Shown here: piece by piece, positions 19,771-49,531 of the stretch
Layout: every line of letters begins with the position of its first letter
How positions within the stretch are numbered: the stretch's first letter is position 1
Origin: Harriotta raleighana
Lineage: Eukaryota
Reading direction: 5' to 3'
Length of the DNA stretch: 64,000 nucleotides
NCBI GenBank assembly: GCA_050575255.1
Contig: JBNZDD010013683.1
Span: forward strand, 1,462,191-1,526,190
Translations under genes and position numbers: made by a program
Notes under the pieces: generated by a model
Database searches by the model: none
What the model was told of the DNA's origin: nothing
The model's input: the letters and a program-made list of their open reading frames with translations, nothing else

Positions 19771-20653
19771 GATTGCTTACACAGCATTGTATTACAAACT
19801 TTCCTTGGGTTTCTTCTCTTCCTGTGATGGAAGAAATAATAACCTCAAAATGAACGGAAGGAAACGTAGTTAAAATGTCACATTTTTCCTTTTCTGACCT
19901 TTTCTCAAAGTTTCATTTAAGTATACCAGAGACAAAACTGCGTGAGATATTGTTATCGATAACTGATCGGAAACAAAACAACTTTATATATTTATATAGA
20001 GCCTTTCATGTCAAAAGAACATCTCAAAAGTAAAAGCACTGATTGAGCACATTCACCAAAAATTAACATTTCCTAATCCTTACGGTTAGTGGAAATCAAA
20101 CTCATTATGCTGAAAATAATGTTCGCCTCTTTTTCCTGATTGGAAGAAAATAAACAGTCCTCAGTATATCTGTGAAGCTTACAGTCCACTTAAGGCATTG
20201 TTACATTATAGGGACCAAGTGGATGAAAGAGAATTAGTTTTCAGTGGATACAATCAAACGGTATTCGCAAGCCATTTATATATGTGATTGAAAATGAAAT
20301 AGGTTTTGTTCGCTGTGTACTAGTGTGGTATTTGAGAAGGTGAGGTTGATTGCTGGCTTCCCTAAATGTCATGGCTTTACAGGATACTGATGAGGTCATT
20401 GCAAGTGAGCTTTGGTATTAAGGTGACAGAGAAAGAAGGGTTCGGGACTGATTTTATGAAACCTTTCAGTGGAAAGGAAGCTTGGTAAATAACAGAAGAA
20501 GAATATAAACATAAAGTCTTTTTTGGCCAAAGTGTAAAGAAATTAAGTAATAAATCCAGTCTGAATGACTGTTTTTTAGAAAAAAAAACTTTGTTTCTTG
20601 TCCATATATCAATTAAACAAAGTTTTTTTTAAAATTTGCATGACTAATATATG

Positions 20654-20790
20654 AAATAATAATAATAATCGTTACATTTATATAGCGCTTTCCACATCTT
20701 ATGGACANTAAATTTGCATGACTAATATATGAAATAATAATAATCGTTACATTTATATAGCGCTTTCCACATCTTATGGACATCTCAAAA
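20654..20790 (-). mobile_element. SINE/L2 3' tail, artefactually duplicated around N at 20708
   Basis: (aat)n cgttacatttatatagcgctttccacatc is the reverse complement of the family tail. Confidence 0.7.
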
Positions 20791-21244
20791 GTAGTAGCTG
20801 GTTATTAAAAGTATTAAATTAGGCTTGGAACTTAAATCAATAATTTACACTGACTTATTTAATTTTGCTTTTACTCTATTTTCAATATACCTTTTTCTTC
20901 TTATTCAAAATGAATTAAAAACACATTGCTTACCTTTTATTCAATGTTGTACTTTCCATGTACATTTTGGAGATGAGAGTTTAAGTGGAAACAAATGGCC
21001 TTCGAATGATCAAATAAAAAGCAATGCAAGGCCAATTTTTCAACTAATTGAAACCTAAAAGATTGTCATGCTTGCTCGATGAGTTATCGCGTTTGCAGCA
21101 ATAGTAACCATCAAGCATTGAATAATAATCCTAATAATCTTTGCGTTTGATACAAGCTGAGTTGTGTTGCCAACCAGGAGGCTTGCCTGCCATCCACCTA
21201 CTGAGGGCTCAAACCTGCGCTTGTCATGTCAATGACAAAATGCA

Positions 21245-21256
21245 CAAAATGGCGGC
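21245..21256 (+). promoter_or_regulatory. YY1 consensus motif overlapping the putative ATG in a CpG-rich patch
   Basis: caaaatggcggc is an exact YY1-type consensus. Function is not shown. Confidence 0.3.
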
Positions 21257-21660
21257 AGCAGCGGCGGCGGAAGAGGGTTGGGCGCCACCGTCGCCACTAG
21301 AGCAGCCGAAACAACCATCCCAACGGCGGTCGCGACCGAAACCGCTGCCACGACCAGAACCGATACCGCTACCGAGGACTCGGGCGAAGATGCGGGTCTA
21401 TACCCCGTGCCTCTGCGTCTGCGGGGAACTGGGACAGGTACACCTGAGCACGGCGTCGTCTTCGGCGGCCATGGTGCGTGCTGCGTTTGCTGGTCGGCAA
21501 CATCTTCCAGTGCTGCAGGCGGCGGACCACCTCGTCGTGGGGGACCATCGCGTCACGGGAGATCCCGACGGCGGTTGAGCTGCTGCTACCGGGCGAACTG
21601 GCCAGCCACACCGTGTCTGAGGTACCAAGGCCTTCAGCGAATCACCTGGTCACCAGCTGA
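21249..21660 (+). pseudogene. Histone H2B-derived pseudogene (frameshifted, diverged)
   Basis: From 21544, [26 protein letters not shown] aligns to canonical H2B [26 protein letters not shown] at 21/26 identity. A 1-nt deletion then gives gag g-t acc aag gcc (EGTKA). In another frame upstream, CVCGELGQVHLSTASSSAAM parallels [20 protein letters not shown], and LVGNIFQ parallels FVNDIFE. No canonical histone 3' stem-loop seen. The start coordinate is the putative ATG and is uncertain. Confidence 0.88.
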
Positions 21661-21770
21661 GGAGCCGGTCGGTTTTGGGGCCTTTCACTACACTGGGCCT
21701 GGTTCCCGCCTTTTTGAATATCGCCCAGGTGGGCGGTGAGGACAAGGAGCGCTTGCTGGACTGTTCTTAA

Positions 21771-21903
21771 TTGTTGTTGCCATTGCTTTTTTTTGTTTAT
21801 TGTTGTTGATGTTGTTGTTTGTTGCTGTTGTTTGGTGCCCCCCCGCCCCCTGACCTTTCCCCCTCCTTTTCTTCTTCTTCCCTCCCTCCCTCTTCCCTCT
21901 CTA
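21771..21903 (+). repeat. Imperfect (GTT)n followed by a C/T-rich tract
   Basis: Directly visible low-complexity sequence. Confidence 0.85.
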
Positions 21904-21904
21904 C

Positions 21905-22327
21905 CCTGTGGCTCAGTGGTTAGACCATTCGCCTTACAAGCATGAGACCTGTGTTCGAATCCAGGCAGATCAAGGAGAAACCTTGGGCAAGTTTCCTTAC
22001 TCCACATGCCTAATAATAATCCCTCCAAAAAAACCACAATAATAAAATTGGTCCTTTCAATCCATGACTGTTTGTGGGGGACGCTGCTGTGCGCAATTGG
22101 CTGCCACATTCCGCCCTCAAATATACAGTCAATTCACTTTACAGTATATTCTGTGAAGCGGTTTGGGACGTCGATAAGATGTGAAAAGTGCTACATCAAA
22201 TGCAAGGATTATTATTATATTATTATTATTATATATTATGTTATTATTACATTATTATATATTATATTATTATATAGTATTATTATATTATTATATATTA
22301 TTATACTGTATTATTATTATATTATTA
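21905..22327 (+). mobile_element. Young Deu-domain SINE with an expanded cryptic (TAT/TA)n tail of about 120 bp
   Basis: Head cctgtggctcagtgg to the tail at about 22208, then AT-only repeat to 22327. Confidence 0.92.
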
Positions 22328-22496
22328 CCCCCCTCTTCCCTCTTATCCCCCTTTCTCCCTATTTCTACCTGATTTTGTACCCCACCCATCTTTCCCTCCA
22401 TCTTCCCCCTTGCCCCCCTTTTCCTCCCTGATTTGACCCCACCCTGCCTTTCCCTCCATCTCCCCCCTTACTCTCTTTTCCCACTTTCTCCCCCGG

Positions 22497-22718
22497 CCCC
22501 ACTTCCACGACTGTTTGTGGGACATTGCTGTGAGCAATTTGGCTGCCGTGTTTCGCCCACAAATATACAGTAGGTTTTTCCTGCTCTCCTTTGCCCTACC
22601 CCGACCCTTCCCCATCTTTTCCCCCTTTCTCCCCTAACCCCACTTCCATGACTGTTTGTAGGACACTGCTGTGTGCAATTTGGCTGCCATGTTTCGCCCA
22701 CAAATGTACAGTCAATTT
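22497..22718 (+). repeat. Two tandem partial Deu-core copies separated by pyrimidine tracts
   Basis: ccccacttcca(c/t)gactgtttgt(g/a)ggaca...caatttggctgcc...tttcgcccacaaat(a/g)tacagt at about 22497-22571 and 22638-22712. Confidence 0.85.
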
Positions 22719-22771
22719 GTTCTTACTTTCCTTCCCCCCACCCCTCCCCGCGATCTAATCGCTACTTGACT

Positions 22772-22840
22772 TTACAGCGCCTTGGGACGTCCTCCCAACG
22801 TGAAAGGCGCTATATAAATGTAATTTTGATTGATTGATTG
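22772..22840 (+). mobile_element. L2 LINE-type 3' tail ending in (GATT)n
   Basis: cagcgccttgggacgtcctcccaacgtgaaaggcgctatataaatgtaattttg, the same tail that ends the L2 RT fragment at 39371-39434. Confidence 0.85.
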
Positions 22841-23159
22841 AATGTGAATACTGTATAAGTGAAAGAGCAGGTCTTATATGTCAAAGGCATTTTCTCTCAC
22901 CCATGCCTTCACTTGATCTTCAGGAAAATAAACAGTTTGACAAGTTAGATCTGTTGACGACCGACATCGGATCCAACTTGCATTGATAGCTAAAAATGGT
23001 GATCTATTCAAAGGTGAAGCAGAAAAGATGAATGTTAAGTGTAGAGCCTGTTGATTCAGACACGACTAAAGCTAGAGAACATGCATTGCGTGATTGTAAG
23101 TTAATGGCACATCGATTCCACAACAGGATTTCCTGGTTTGATTTGCTTTGTTCCTGCAG

Positions 23160-23256
23160 CAATATTTTCACTTTGCCTTTCTGTACAAGAGCTCTACCAC
23201 AGATTACATCAGCTCCACCGTGTGGAAATCAAGAAAATGTTTCTCCACTCATCATG
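23160..23256 (+). CDS. Candidate 97-nt internal exon, unidentified
   Basis: Strong acceptor ttgctttgttcctgcag and donor ATG|gtaaga. All three frames are open; one reads IFSLCLSVQELYHRLHQLHRVEIKKMFLHSS(W). Confidence 0.3.
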
Positions 23257-23427
23257 GTAAGAATATACAGGTACAACCAGATTTGTCTCCACAATTTGAA
23301 TGACCTCATTCAAAGATATAGCAACCTAGTTAAAACAAAAGATAGAGTCATGTGTGTCTTAGGCAGAGACATGCAAACCTGCCTGCAGTTGAAAATTCAA
23401 TGCATTTGTAATCTAAAGTACTGTTTT

Positions 23428-23622
23428 TAAAAAGGCAAACAGGATCCTCAGCTTTGTAAATAAAGACAGAGAGTACAGGCAGTTCTGTCGAATTTTTGCT
23501 AAATGCTGATTAGGCATCAGCTGGAGTATTAGATCCAATTCTGGGCAACCCACTACAAGAAGGATGTCAGGGCCTTGGAGAGGTTGCGGAGGAGACTTAC
23601 AAGAATGTTACCAGGGATGATG
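23428..23622 (+). mobile_element. CR1-clade LINE ORF2 fragment
   Basis: KKANRILSFV...LIRHQLEY*IQFWATHYKKDVRALERLRRRLTRMLPGM matches the CR1 pattern LEYCVQFWxPxYKKDxxxLERVQRR. Confidence 0.88.
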
Positions 23623-24087
23623 AACAGGGGTGGATCTCAATATATAAATCAGGAATTACAAATATACTTTAGAATAAACAGAACAAAGCTTGGGCCGGTC
23701 TTCAATGTCATCTGCAATATAAGTACGCCACAACAGTAAATTCAACACGAATAAACAGTTCAGTTACAAAGTCAAAACATGTAACATTGCAACATTCTGA
23801 ATCTAAATTGCAGTTTAATTTTTCACTTTTGTTTTGAAAAAGAATGAACTATAAGGAATGAATCGTGAATTTTAAGCGGTACAAAATTCTTTTTTTATTG
23901 GGGTATGAGAGGCAAACAACTCACTTGTTCATAAAATAAATTGTAGGCTCAGTTGCTCTGATTTCCTTAATGGACAGAGAAATAATTAGCCCATTATTTA
24001 AAAGCTGTATTTAAACAACCAAAGTTTTTTTAAAAATTCTATACCAAATATCAATATAATTTAACATTTGCACATATCTTGCACATA

Positions 24088-24228
24088 CTCCTGTGCACAA
24101 ATGGCTGCTGCTTTTCTCCCACAAAATTTACAGTCAATTCAGTTTACAGTATATTCTGTGCAGGACTTTGAGACATCTAGAAGACATGATCAGGCACCAT
24201 ATCAAATGCAAGTTTTTTTATTATTATG
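24088..24228 (+). mobile_element. 3' half of a Deu-domain SINE
   Basis: gtgcacaaatggctgc...cagtcaattcagtttacagtatattctgtg...atatcaaatgcaag. Confidence 0.8.
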
Positions 24229-24935
24229 TGTACTTCACTTACTATTGAATTATATTCTCTTCAGCAAATCAGCTGGACGCAAACCTTCTTTTAATTGCTG
24301 ATGATTCATGGTTGGTCAGACGACTGAATTGTGTACATACTGCAGTCCTTGGTATAAGGGATTCACTTTAGCCTTTCAAATCTCTGCAATTTTATGGTCC
24401 AATAAACTGGGAACGCTTGGGGTCACTGCATTCGGGCTCCGTATCAGCAATTGAGTAATAATTACTGTTCTCAAGCTTCCCTTTGACTTTACAGACAATT
24501 GTATCTGTCTTTTAAATGGTTTCCCAACAGCACCTGCATGATTCATGCGCTTGTTGCCATCTGCCACATCCGGCTCAGAGAAGTGTCAGACACAATGGGG
24601 AGCCGGGGGGCTAGATGTAAATCTACAGCCTAAATCGAAATTAAGACATTCTAAACTGAATGGGAATTTAGAATAAATCACAGGTTCCCCCCATGGCCCC
24701 AACCCCCCGCCAAAAAAAAATCCATCCCAGATCTGTAACCTTTCATGCGTATCAACTGCAGAGTATCTAGGAATATCCTGTGAATGAGTACATCGCTCGT
24801 CAGCATTATTCCTCAAATTGTGGAGGAAGACTGTGACCACATGTACCAAAATGGCACTTCAACCCACAACCTCCTCAATCTGCAAGAGGTCTATGGACTG
24901 TGTCGGTTGAGTATATATGTTCATCCATATGTTTG

Positions 24936-25264
24936 TGAAGTCCTGTAGCTCAGTGGTTTATGTTTAGCCGTTAGCCATTGCTCTAACGAGCAATCACTTT
25001 ACAAGCGTGAGACCTGTGTTCGAATCCAGGTAGGTCAGGGCAAAACCTTGGACAAGTTTCCTTACTCCACATGCCAAATAGTAATCCCTCCAAAGAAAAA
25101 CCACAACTGGTTGTGGGCAATTGGCTGTCCGCAATTGGCTGCCTTGTTTCGCCCATAAGTATACAGTCAATTCACTTTACAGTATATTCTGCAAAGCACT
25201 TTGAGATGTGTAGAAGACGTGAAAAGCGCTATATAAAATGTAAGGAACATTATTATTATTATTA
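24936..25264 (+). mobile_element. tRNA-derived Deu-domain SINE
   Basis: Head with a short insertion, B-box gttcgaatcc, core and tail. Confidence 0.9.
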
Positions 25265-26176
25265 ATATCCATACAAGTACTATATGGCAAAAATATCTTT
25301 GACTGCAGTGTCCAAGTTTACTCATGTTAACAATGGGGATTGTAAGTAAGTATCGTAAATACAAAGCCCATCCAAAAGTACTCATTGAAATGGCTAAACA
25401 TAAATTTTTTTGAGTGAAAGCTACAAAGCTACGAAAATGGCAATACTCCTTTAGGAAATACAATGGATACTGTATATTTTAACTGACTGATAAAATAATA
25501 GGAATATAGTAGTTACATTTCTACCTGTCACATAGCCAGAACCATCATTAATCAAAGAGATGTACTTAGGAATGTTTTAACGTTATTGTCGTGTTTAGCA
25601 TCATCTGTATTCAAATTTCATAACAGTATTTTAAAGAATAATTACTAGATCTAATTAGACACATTTAAGTACATTTGTATGAAACAGCTGGGGTGGTATT
25701 AGTGGTTGCCAGGGGGAAACCAGCAAGGAATGAGCTTTCAGTAATTGTAGAACTTTGATGGATTCTTAACTTAATTTGTATAACAGCATTTATTACTGCA
25801 TATATAAAAAAATTAATAGTGCCTAAAAAGACTCTGAGAAAAATAATGGTTATTATCTGATATAACAACAACTTTGATTTATGCAACGCCCTCTACGCTG
25901 GATGGCATCTCAGAGTGCTTCAATATTTAATGTTATAATGAATGCAAGGATTATTATTTAAGAATAGAAATGCTTGTTTATCCATTGATATAGATTTCAG
26001 TGTTGTCAGTGTTGGTAAAGCTCCCAATTTAGGTTATGTTCTCTGTCTGCAATTAACATTTAGTCAGTCTGTTTACTAGTGATAATCCAGAATTTTTTAA
26101 TGTTTCAATATGCATTGTGCTTACTGACAAAGTGACTAATCTTACAAATAGTTCATTAGTTTTAACATTGCATATC

Positions 26177-37950: not shown

Positions 37951-38784
37951 ATCAAAGTAATTGATATCTTGTTATATTTGAAGCTGGTATAGATGTGGAT
38001 GCCCAATTCACATCTGTGGTTCCCTGATCGTTCCATTTGCTAAACCATTTCACTCTTTTCTTATTCTACAATGCATCTATAATTACAGGAGAGTGAACAA
38101 ATGCTAGTGTTTATATGCTTGGATGGAATATAACATTTCTTGGAAGTGAATATGATTCATTTGGTCTGATCCCAGATGAAGTCTGCAAAATCTGACAAGT
38201 CAACGGGATGCCAGTCCGAGGTACCAATTTGCTATTTGAGATCATTCTAATTGGACTTCCCACACACAGCCAAACCTTGTGTTGGGTATTTATTTCAAGA
38301 TGTTAATGAAGATCCTCTTGGTTGTACACCACAAACATTAGTTTGTAAGAACACTCGCCAGCCAAATCGGAGGCCAGCTCTCAAATCGTACAGCATCAAT
38401 TACTCTGTGGGAAATTGCTAGGGAGATTAAGAAAAAAAAGGACAATCTGCAAAGCTTTTAGGAAGAATGCCAAGGTCGACCTTTGGATCACGCAAATGTT
38501 ACACAGACGTGGGGATTAGATGTGCCAAGAGAAAGCAGGGAAGGGACATAGCATCAGATGCAAAGCATAATGCCAACAGTTTCTGCCAATGTAATAACAG
38601 CAAGACAAGATGTTTTTTTTTAAAAAGCATGAGAGACTGAGCCCTGAAGGATTGAATGAATGTTGAAACAAAGTGGAAATATTCAATACATTAAATTACT
38701 ATTTCATGAGATATATATAACCAAGGGGGGCAGTATCTACATGCCTTCTAACATGTGCTGTATGAGTTCTGTAACCTTGACAGT

Positions 38785-39434
38785 CACTGGCAGCATCAGC
38801 CTCCATGGTTGCACACTCAACCTTCCCAAGCTAGTCTGGAATCTAGGTGTCTTGTTCGATCCTCCCCACATCCAAGTCATGACCCGCTCTGCCTTCCCTC
38901 ACCTCCACAATATTGCCCAATTCCACCACTACCTCACCCCTCAGGTCACTGAAACCCTCGTTCATGCCTTCATCACATCAAGGTTTGCCTACCCCACTGC
39001 CCTGTTTGTCGGCCTTCCCAATTCCTTCCTCCATAGATAATCCAGAACTCTGCAGCCCGTGTCCTCTTACCCATCCTTGCCCAACTCCATTGGCTCCCCT
39101 TCGCCCACAGGATTTAATTCAAGATCCTGGTCCTCACATTCAAAGCCCTCCATGGCTTCCCCGCCACCCTACTTCAGTGGCCTCCTAAATCCCTGCCAAC
39201 CTGACCGCCCCCTCCGCCATAGTCCTTCCACCTTGCCCCCGTTCTTACCCTCCCTTCAAGTCCCGCTTCAAGACTCTCCTCTTTGACAGTCCCATCTGTC
39301 ACTCCAAATCCCCCCTTTTTCTTCCACCTTCCCCATCCCCACCCCAGCTCGGGTCTGAAACAATGACTGTCCAGTGCCTTGGGATGTCCTCCTGACGTGA
39401 AAGGCGCTATACAAGTGGTGTTATGTTGTTGTTG
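38785..39434 (+). mobile_element. 5'-truncated L2 LINE (RT C-terminus, 3' UTR and tail)
   Basis: NLGVLFD...AFPHLHNIAQFHHYLTPQVTETLVHAFITSRFAY...GLP, then IQNSAARVL and FKALHG, ending ccagtgccttgggatgtcctcctgacgtgaaaggcgctatac...(gtt)n. Confidence 0.92.
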
Positions 39435-49210: not shown

Positions 49211-49531
49211 TGGAGCTCCTGTAGCTTAGTGGTTAGAGCACTCGTCTTACAAGCATGAGACCTGTGTTCGAATCCAGGCAGATCAGGGCGAAACCTTGGG
49301 GAAGTTTCCTTACTCCACATGCCTAATAATAATCCCTCCAAAAAAACCACAATAATAAAATTGGTCATTTCAATCCATGACTGTTTGTGGGACGCTGCTG
49401 TGCGCAATTGGCTGCCGCGTTTCGCCCACAAATATACAGTCAATTCACTTTACAGTATATTCTGTGAAGCAGTTTGGGATGTCGATAAGATGTGAAAAGT
49501 GCTATATCAAATGCAAGGATTATTATTATTA
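49211..49531 (+). mobile_element. tRNA-derived Deu-domain SINE, young full-length copy
   Basis: Nearly identical to 13226-13568 and 21905-22210. Confidence 0.93.

Follow-up and report, generated by a model that had tools for sequence, protein, structure and literature searches.

A dispersed LINE-tailed repeat family headed by histone H2B and RUNDC1 exon 1 sequence

Locus and Module Layout

The window, i.e., the whole stretch of 64,000 nucleotides that was analyzed, carried a composite insert (Table 1) that was studied in a 1.10-Gb gapped assembly, with the whole genome serving as the search space for copies. A GC- and CpG-rich block at 21160-21770 contrasted with the 37% GC of the window, and the CpG observed/expected ratio was 0.97 at 21160-21460 compared to 0.38 for the whole window. 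An initial annotation had listed an inverted SINE tail at the left edge, a CpG-rich leader with a YY1 motif, a frameshifted histone H2B sequence, (GTT)n and C/T tracts, a SINE with an expanded AT tail, two partial SINE-derived cores, and a LINE tail. All of these modules were found in the sequence in that order, including the AAAATGGCGG motif at 21246 (21246-21255), which resembles a YY1 site, and the (GTT)n was delimited to 21764-21838. A component absent from that list was a piece of RUNDC1 exon 1. Farther upstream in the window (20632-20783), an exact 75-nt tandem duplication surrounded a single N at 20708; similar N-centered duplications occurred in several other loci, and the one in the window is likely a gap-filling artifact of the assembly.

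Table 1. Modules of the composite insert and its left flank, in window coordinates.
Feature	Positions	Strand
Left flank, not in the element: fragments of an inverted SINE tail (21121-21153) and of an older unrelated repeat (21145-21242)	21121-21242	
5' leader, YY1-like motif then CpG-rich short tandem units; family 5' end	21243-21398	+
Segment derived from histone H2B, from the histone-fold part through the C-terminus; of the youngest grade; private +1 insertion at ~21475	21399-21659	+
RUNDC1 exon 1 remnant, two pieces joined by a family-shared deletion	21660-21763	+
(GTT)n tract and initial part of C/T tract, common to other copies	21764-21904	+
Nested later insert outside the mobile unit: tRNA-type SINE, slightly 5'-truncated, expanded AT tail	21905-22328	+
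C/T tract and tandemly duplicated ~140-nt unit; partial SINE cores at 22504-22571 and 22645-22717	22329-22744	+
LINE (presumed L2-type) 3' tail with stem-loop and (GATT)n end	22767-22840	+

Copies in the Genome

A search of the genome with 21170-21770 returned 1609 first-look candidates, and among the best 40 of these, which were scored, non-self matches to the head were 77-91% identical and none started upstream of 21249. Sequence of the downstream modules (22325-22843) was present on the same strand in 27 of the 29 other top copies in the form of the C/T tract, a SINE-derived core, or the LINE tail, with at least one SINE-derived core in 24 of them. A 19-mer across the head-internal junction had 207 exact genome matches compared to 0 for the reversed control. 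As this 19-mer was exactly kept in 8/30 and 13/43 examined copies, the exact matches correspond to roughly 700-800 junction-bearing copies, and the family is estimated from these matches at no fewer than two hundred copies and likely several hundred. The H2B part had been predicted to belong to a multi-copy family with shared frameshifts and downstream modules, and this was borne out by the genome search, including a 1-nt shift near the H2B C-terminus that is common to three of the four grades described below (G2-G4).

A junction-picked sample was drawn as 60 loci from the first 100 listed junction matches, of which 59 were usable (L205 was left out as the pattern was not at the expected position). 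All 59 matched a grade majority; 31 contained two or more cores, 23 contained one, and none was detected in 5, while the tails were of the GATT (32), ATT (6), GTT (3), or other (5) type, with none found in 13. Host-gene loci, duplicates, and two separate degraded H2B pseudogenes lacking the family body (L077 and L081) were left out of the copy sets.

Family-like sequence was also abundant in four public DNA runs, and one public-run contig crossed the flank-head junction (20891-21346) with 5 differences (99% identity), such that the same insertion is present there and an empty orthologous site was not seen; as this contig possibly derives from the same species or sample, it lends no independent support for the age of the insertion. 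In run X7, the depth over the RUNDC1 remnant (21681-21746) was several times that over the H2B part and loose ends at 21696-21698 showed different upstream sequence. The depth excess may reflect another family with the RUNDC1 piece or many truncated copies.

Origin of the Head

The family majority was ~66% identical to the genome's own H2B genes (E 4e-25), with alignment scores of 234-267 compared to a shuffled maximum of no more than 148, in agreement with the frameshifted H2B sequence recognized initially. The old copy L074 was 71% identical to host H2B L045 over 83 aa and matched Pfam Histone (E 1.5e-12). H2B.K as the donor received no support, as L074 was similarly close (71-72% identity) to every host H2B type listed. 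In three host H2B variants, L045 and L047 (G000:C13217) and L042 (G000:C13274), the N-terminal tails were divergent and the 150 nt that follow the stop contained no histone stem-loop; L047 also had an internal deletion.

In old copies, RUNDC1 exon 1 directly followed the H2B C-terminus. The old-grade majority matched RUNDC1 residues 11-104 (E 3e-36), and the old copy L124 gave ten database matches, each to a cartilaginous-fish RUNDC1 (up to 76% identity over 50 aa), the best RUNDC1 match of the captured piece being Callorhinchus milii. Together with a SINE/LINE make-up like the one reported for chimaeras (PMC5499810), this match makes a holocephalan host likely. Younger grades, including the window copy, retained just both ends of this piece, with a weak 13-aa match left in the window copy. 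The notion of captured histone sequence held for the presence of H2B but was incomplete, and the head as a whole is a two-gene chimera of H2B and RUNDC1 exon 1. RUNDC1-only copies with the same GTT junction were few, making up three of five matches: two in L148 that reached the gene N-terminus and had a similar start, AATGGC, followed by the same GTT tract, and a 5'-truncated copy in L176 that continued to the core and tail. The host RUNDC1 on contig C13201 was represented by exons further 3' with N gaps upstream, and its exon 1 was not found in the gapped assembly.

The 5' leader was short in the old copies L074, L119, and L125 and longer in the younger grades. Immediately ahead of its RUNDC1 end and GTT tract, L074 (G000:C13676, minus strand, ~1740-1660) also contained another AAAAATGGCGG-headed piece, with the same short upstream letters as the first start, and the copy ended in a SINE-type (ATT)n tail.

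A small-RNA head was not detected by Rfam (20500-26000) or ARAGORN, with 0 matches each. Both also missed the head of the nested SINE, and the decisive evidence is therefore the positive assignment of the head to H2B and RUNDC1, by which a classical SINE (SINE1/2/3) with a small-RNA head and Pol III A/B boxes was rejected.

Element Boundaries and the Nested SINE

Thirty-one copies shared a start at an ATGGCGG motif within unrelated flanks, often preceded by a few A or AAG, and upstream of the motif the copies had no sequence in common. The unit start is accordingly placed at ~21243-21249 in the window, and the mobile unit as delimited by these comparisons is ~21243-22840 without the tRNA-type SINE. 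The motif was seen in 18 of the 59 junction-picked copies. The left edge earlier set at 21117 was abandoned, since full-length members start at ATGGCGG. ATTGAAT, which had been proposed as a target site duplication (TSD), was indeed found at both 21117-21123 and 22837-22843, but the left occurrence lies at least 126 nt off the true 5' end and the match likely arose by chance. Four of the seven letters in the right-hand occurrence belong to the tail microsatellite, and a chance 7-mer match within 150 nt was obtained in 2% of trials, or 10% with 8 registers allowed. Regular TSDs were not found in the 19 copies with both ends, where the best flanking direct repeat was just 0-6 nt.

The flanking segment 21145-21242 was assigned to an older repeat that is dispersed in the genome, of which it is a fragment (49 candidates with 75-95% identity; L062-L070). 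It was rejected as a part of the element or a shared 5' transduction, as 0/40 scored matches continued into the H2B head. A continuation of that repeat before 21121 or past 22843 was rejected as well, since 17 of 18 comparisons did not exceed shuffles, the sole exception being L068 downstream (1/200 shuffles).

The nested SINE (21905-22218) was 94% identical to a free SINE at 49218-49529, and its expanded AT tail spanned 22208-22327. The family majority ran unbroken across the SINE site, the C/T tract was interrupted in the window copy, a short match existed between the SINE tail and its target, and the SINE head was absent inside the element in 57 of 59 sampled copies. The "young SINE" of the initial annotation is hence a real tRNA-type SINE with an expanded AT tail, and its role as a module of the unit was not upheld. 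SINE as a fixed module was likewise rejected among the 29 top copies, of which one (L016) had a SINE after the C/T tract with a different junction; this SINE had been inserted independently close to the site of the one in the window copy, and the downstream modules were missing. A different association with a tRNA-SINE was observed in L010:885-2140 (G000:C13723), where two inverted chimera copies formed a ~1.2-kb imperfect palindrome and a tRNA-SINE head (~125 nt) was fused directly to the family 5' motif. L010 illustrates the addition of a Pol III head and is a possible source of dsRNA.

3' Body and LINE Tail

The two partial cores, initially labeled Deu, were found to lie in a duplicated ~140-nt unit (22465-22602 and 22605-22744, 83.6% identity), and the duplicated core was a piece of the SINE starting ~157 nt before the SINE 3' end. 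The last ~55 nt of the element, ending at 22840 in (GATT)n as the initial annotation had described for a LINE-type tail, were identical at 47-50 of 54 positions to the ends of all six LINE loci compared. In the two tail-matching LINE loci that were scanned, Pfam Exo_endo_phos was found in L193 and RVT_1 in L198. Partner LINE copies were 93-96% alike and ended in (GTT)n, like most of the oldest family members. The tail and its partner LINE are presumably of the L2 class, judging by the look of the tail and the ORF2 end and by the L2 tails described for chimaera SINEs (PMC5499810). A further partner-type LINE, 5'-truncated with an ORF2 C-terminus and a (GTT)n tail, was observed in the window at 38660-39430 (7054 first-look candidates). 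Among 14 gapped LINE loci, none yielded a full-length 5' end.

In the published description, SINEs of a chimaera use an L2 tail, the CORE-type CmiSINE and Deu-type SacSINE1-CM have a ~160-bp 3' part in common, and Deu matches are placed at SacSINE1 positions 124-258 (PMC5499810). Stringent 3'-end recognition is also described for LINEs of such type (PMC3747384). Within the present family, the 3' end was fixed and 5' truncation was variable across copies, a modest tail hairpin was predicted (z -1.94), and a reverse transcriptase reading frame was not found inside the element. As the 3' end matches a resident LINE, the element is likely a non-autonomous LINE-dependent retroposon that was spread by the reverse transcriptase of that LINE. 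Of the earlier proposal that a chimeric non-autonomous retroposon had moved as a unit, the LINE-tailed and multi-copy character stood and the young SINE, left edge, and TSD fell.

Grades and Proposed Assembly History

The copies formed a ladder of RUNDC1-only copies, old H2B and RUNDC1 copies, and three younger grades. In G1, the H2B frame was intact to its end and followed by a long RUNDC1 piece, G2 combined the 1-nt shift with the RUNDC1 deletion, G3 had additional substitutions and a longer leader, and G4, which includes the window copy, had a helix-2 deletion with a short duplication. A tree of 95 rows covering the H2B core (L100 and L229 were left out as duplicates), for which the bootstrap had not settled, separated the host genes and G1 from the rest (100/99) and grouped G3 with G4 (100/100). 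The mean non-CpG divergence from the grade majority was 14.7, 10.1, 12.3, and 8.2% for G1-G4, respectively, which is not monotonic, and these values point to an old main expansion. Tail type, core number, deletions, and leader length changed stepwise between grades, and side branches were represented by L015/L016, L123/L125/L132, and L119/L121.

The order of assembly suggested by these stages would begin with RUNDC1 exon 1 joined to a (GTT)n, C/T, SINE-core, and LINE-tail body, after which a piece of H2B bearing a short YY1-like leader would have taken the place of the front portion of RUNDC1. In successive masters, most of RUNDC1 would then have been lost, the CpG-rich leader would have grown, the core would have been duplicated, and the tail would have changed from (GTT)n to (GATT)n. 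A Pol II transcript starting at the YY1-like 5' motif would have been reverse-transcribed by the resident LINE. Pol II transcription from this motif is likely given that full-length copies start there, and the motif could otherwise be a frequent truncation point or a start point of other cause.

Comparison With Known Retroposons

Similar elements include CmiSINE (SINE2-1_CM and SINE2-1B_CM) and SacSINE1-CM with the partner L2-2_CM, which are described as non-autonomous with a LINE-type 3' tail and a SINE-derived 3' body piece, likely from the same group of fishes (PMC5499810). Unlike these, the present family has no tRNA head or A/B boxes, carries a two-gene head, measures ~1.0-1.3 kb, and numbers hundreds of copies compared to the hundreds of thousands given for CmiSINE/SacSINE1-CM (PMC5499810).

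The initial description as "loosely SVA-like" was apt for the composite non-autonomous structure and failed for the poly(A), L1-type TSD, VNTR, and Alu-like part, given the microsatellite tail and 0-6 nt repeats found here. SVA and LAVA are composite retrotransposons, and SVA_F1 has captured the MAST2 first exon. The family resembles them in being composite, non-autonomous, and likely Pol II-transcribed, with host first-exon sequence and a repeat-expanded leader. It differs by a sequence-specific LINE tail instead of poly(A), the lack of regular TSDs, VNTR, and SINE-R, and a head that is gene-derived throughout. Chimeras of mRNA first exons and LINE-1, reported as 17 individual insertions and proposed as a route to new promoters (10.1101/2025.02.02.635956), similarly fuse a host first exon in sense to retroelement sequence, whereas the present family was amplified into subfamilies and gained a second gene piece.

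Non-canonical SINE heads are described as snRNA, rRNA, or GC-rich with an obscure origin, and bipartite non-autonomous LINEs are thought to be Pol II-transcribed, with RTE, Ingi, Vingi, and R2 given as their only makers (PMC5786205). Like SINEU, SINE28, the GC-rich-head SINEs, and the bipartite LINEs, the family combines a high copy number with a LINE tail and a mode of transcription that is yet to be proven, but unlike SINEU, SINE28, and GC-rich heads as described there, its head was traced to H2B and RUNDC1 coding sequence. Spread of histone H2B by retroposition is shared with H2B.K and H2B.N, which are reported as plain retrogenes (PMC8857922), while only an H2B fragment inside a composite unit occurs here. 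A description of an H2B- or RUNDC1-headed family was not found in the literature searched, and Repbase, Dfam, or the supplements of PMC5499810 may hold it under another name.

The family is a real new form of non-autonomous LINE-tailed retroposon that works in the manner of a SINE or SVA and belongs to neither. SINE heads are normally small-RNA genes, and, to our knowledge, dispersal of mRNA fragments would not be expected of LINEs that recognize their own tail. The present copies indicate that coding fragments, once joined to such a LINE tail, can amplify to hundreds of copies, and that intermediate stages of assembly survive within one genome. In genome annotation, the copies will show up as false H2B or RUNDC1 genes.

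Strand-Biased A>G Changes

Knowledge of the donor genes, which are conserved, allowed changes on the master line to be polarized, a rare possibility for SINEs, and this exposed a strand-specific A>G bias. The analysis covered the H2B/head region at those H2B sites that have the same base in three host genes, with changes defined as shared when present in at least 25% of 92 copies. Of the 51 A sites, 21 had shared A>G changes, compared to shared T>C at 3 of the 34 T sites (p 0.001). Among the A sites, 11 of the 13 that follow U or A were changed, compared to 10 of the 38 that follow C or G (p 0.0006). Rare changes were symmetric (0.030 versus 0.032), and a count from grade majorities, with sites counted once per step, agreed with the bias (25 versus 3). 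Other shared changes included C>G (10) and G>A (9); the ten C>G, of which many affected the third base of a codon, may stem from another paralogue having been the donor.

If the RNA intermediate underwent A-to-I editing and reverse transcription then fixed the edits, the master line would gain A>G, and we regard such editing with modest confidence as the most likely cause of the drift. A preference of ADARs for 5' U or A with depletion for 5' G is described (PMC5663115). A cause other than editing has a considerable chance, if one somewhat below even, and could be LINE reverse transcriptase misincorporation, mutation coupled to the transcription of a master that is expressed in the germline, or selection that favors an RNA poor in A and rich in CpG. 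The head folded no better than shuffles (z +1.43), such that editing by ADAR would require pairing with another strand, and this speaks for a non-editing cause, yet inverted head-to-head copies able to form dsRNA exist in L010. The 5' U/A preference of the shared changes is strong and ADAR-like (PMC5663115), but a weaker trend of the same kind was also seen in private A>G changes (0.038-0.044 versus 0.022-0.028). A 3'-G enrichment was not seen in a rough substitution count that included misaligned flanks (the main A>G figures are from later counts), and this, along with the other shared changes, favors the non-editing side; the strand asymmetry, with so few T>C, excludes ordinary GC-biased conversion.

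Taken with the preceding sections, a dispersed LINE-tailed family with an H2B and RUNDC1 head, likely transcribed by Pol II and spread by a LINE, with a master line that accumulated A>G changes, is strongly favored. A more far-reaching and tentative reading is that of a self-promoting Pol II "SINE" built wholly from protein-coding pieces, first RUNDC1 exon 1 and later H2B, on a stringent L2 tail, with a ladder that recorded both its stepwise assembly and ADAR editing across repeated RNA passages. If true, RNA editing would be a main driver of the sequence evolution of a retroposon lineage. The contributions of RNA editing and reverse transcription error to retroposon evolution become directly testable in this family.

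Source of the Copies and Coding Capacity

The copies might instead be processed-pseudogene-like output of one or a few fixed sources, with a chimeric H2B-RUNDC1 transcript that ends in a LINE tail being driven by an outside promoter, as opposed to elements that propagate themselves from an internal promoter. The narrow ladder would be expected from a single master line, and a source for the leader was not found in an assembly that lacks RUNDC1 exon 1 and yielded no full-length LINE 5' end. The stepwise structural changes and side branches, however, fit repeated RNA passages, no upstream sequence beyond the motif is common to the copies, and a ~5-fold per-site sense A>G excess with a 5' U/A preference would be unexpected at a fixed DNA locus; this source is therefore considered unlikely.

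Selection on an H2B-like frame for a histone-fold protein that helps the element or its host is highly improbable. The majority of the youngest grade (G4) did contain a single 134-codon open frame from the leader ATG, of which L002 retained 132 codons, but a frame of such length occurred in 6% of shuffles in the given frame and 18% in any frame, and it is thus likely a by-product of GC content. Changes shared by the copies affected conserved residues, helix 2 was deleted in G4, and the C-terminus was shifted. Stops or shifts were present in most of 30 copies, and the L002 product had 0 Pfam matches and no database homologue. A functional H2B variant gene was also rejected, as an intact histone fold under purifying selection was not found. 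Judged from these frames, the element likely encodes no working protein.

Lastly, separate insertions of a SINE and an L2 into one H2B pseudogene can be dismissed as the explanation. The tRNA-type SINE of the window copy is truly an independent nested insertion, but the 207 exact junction matches, shared modules, and shared indels mark a family.
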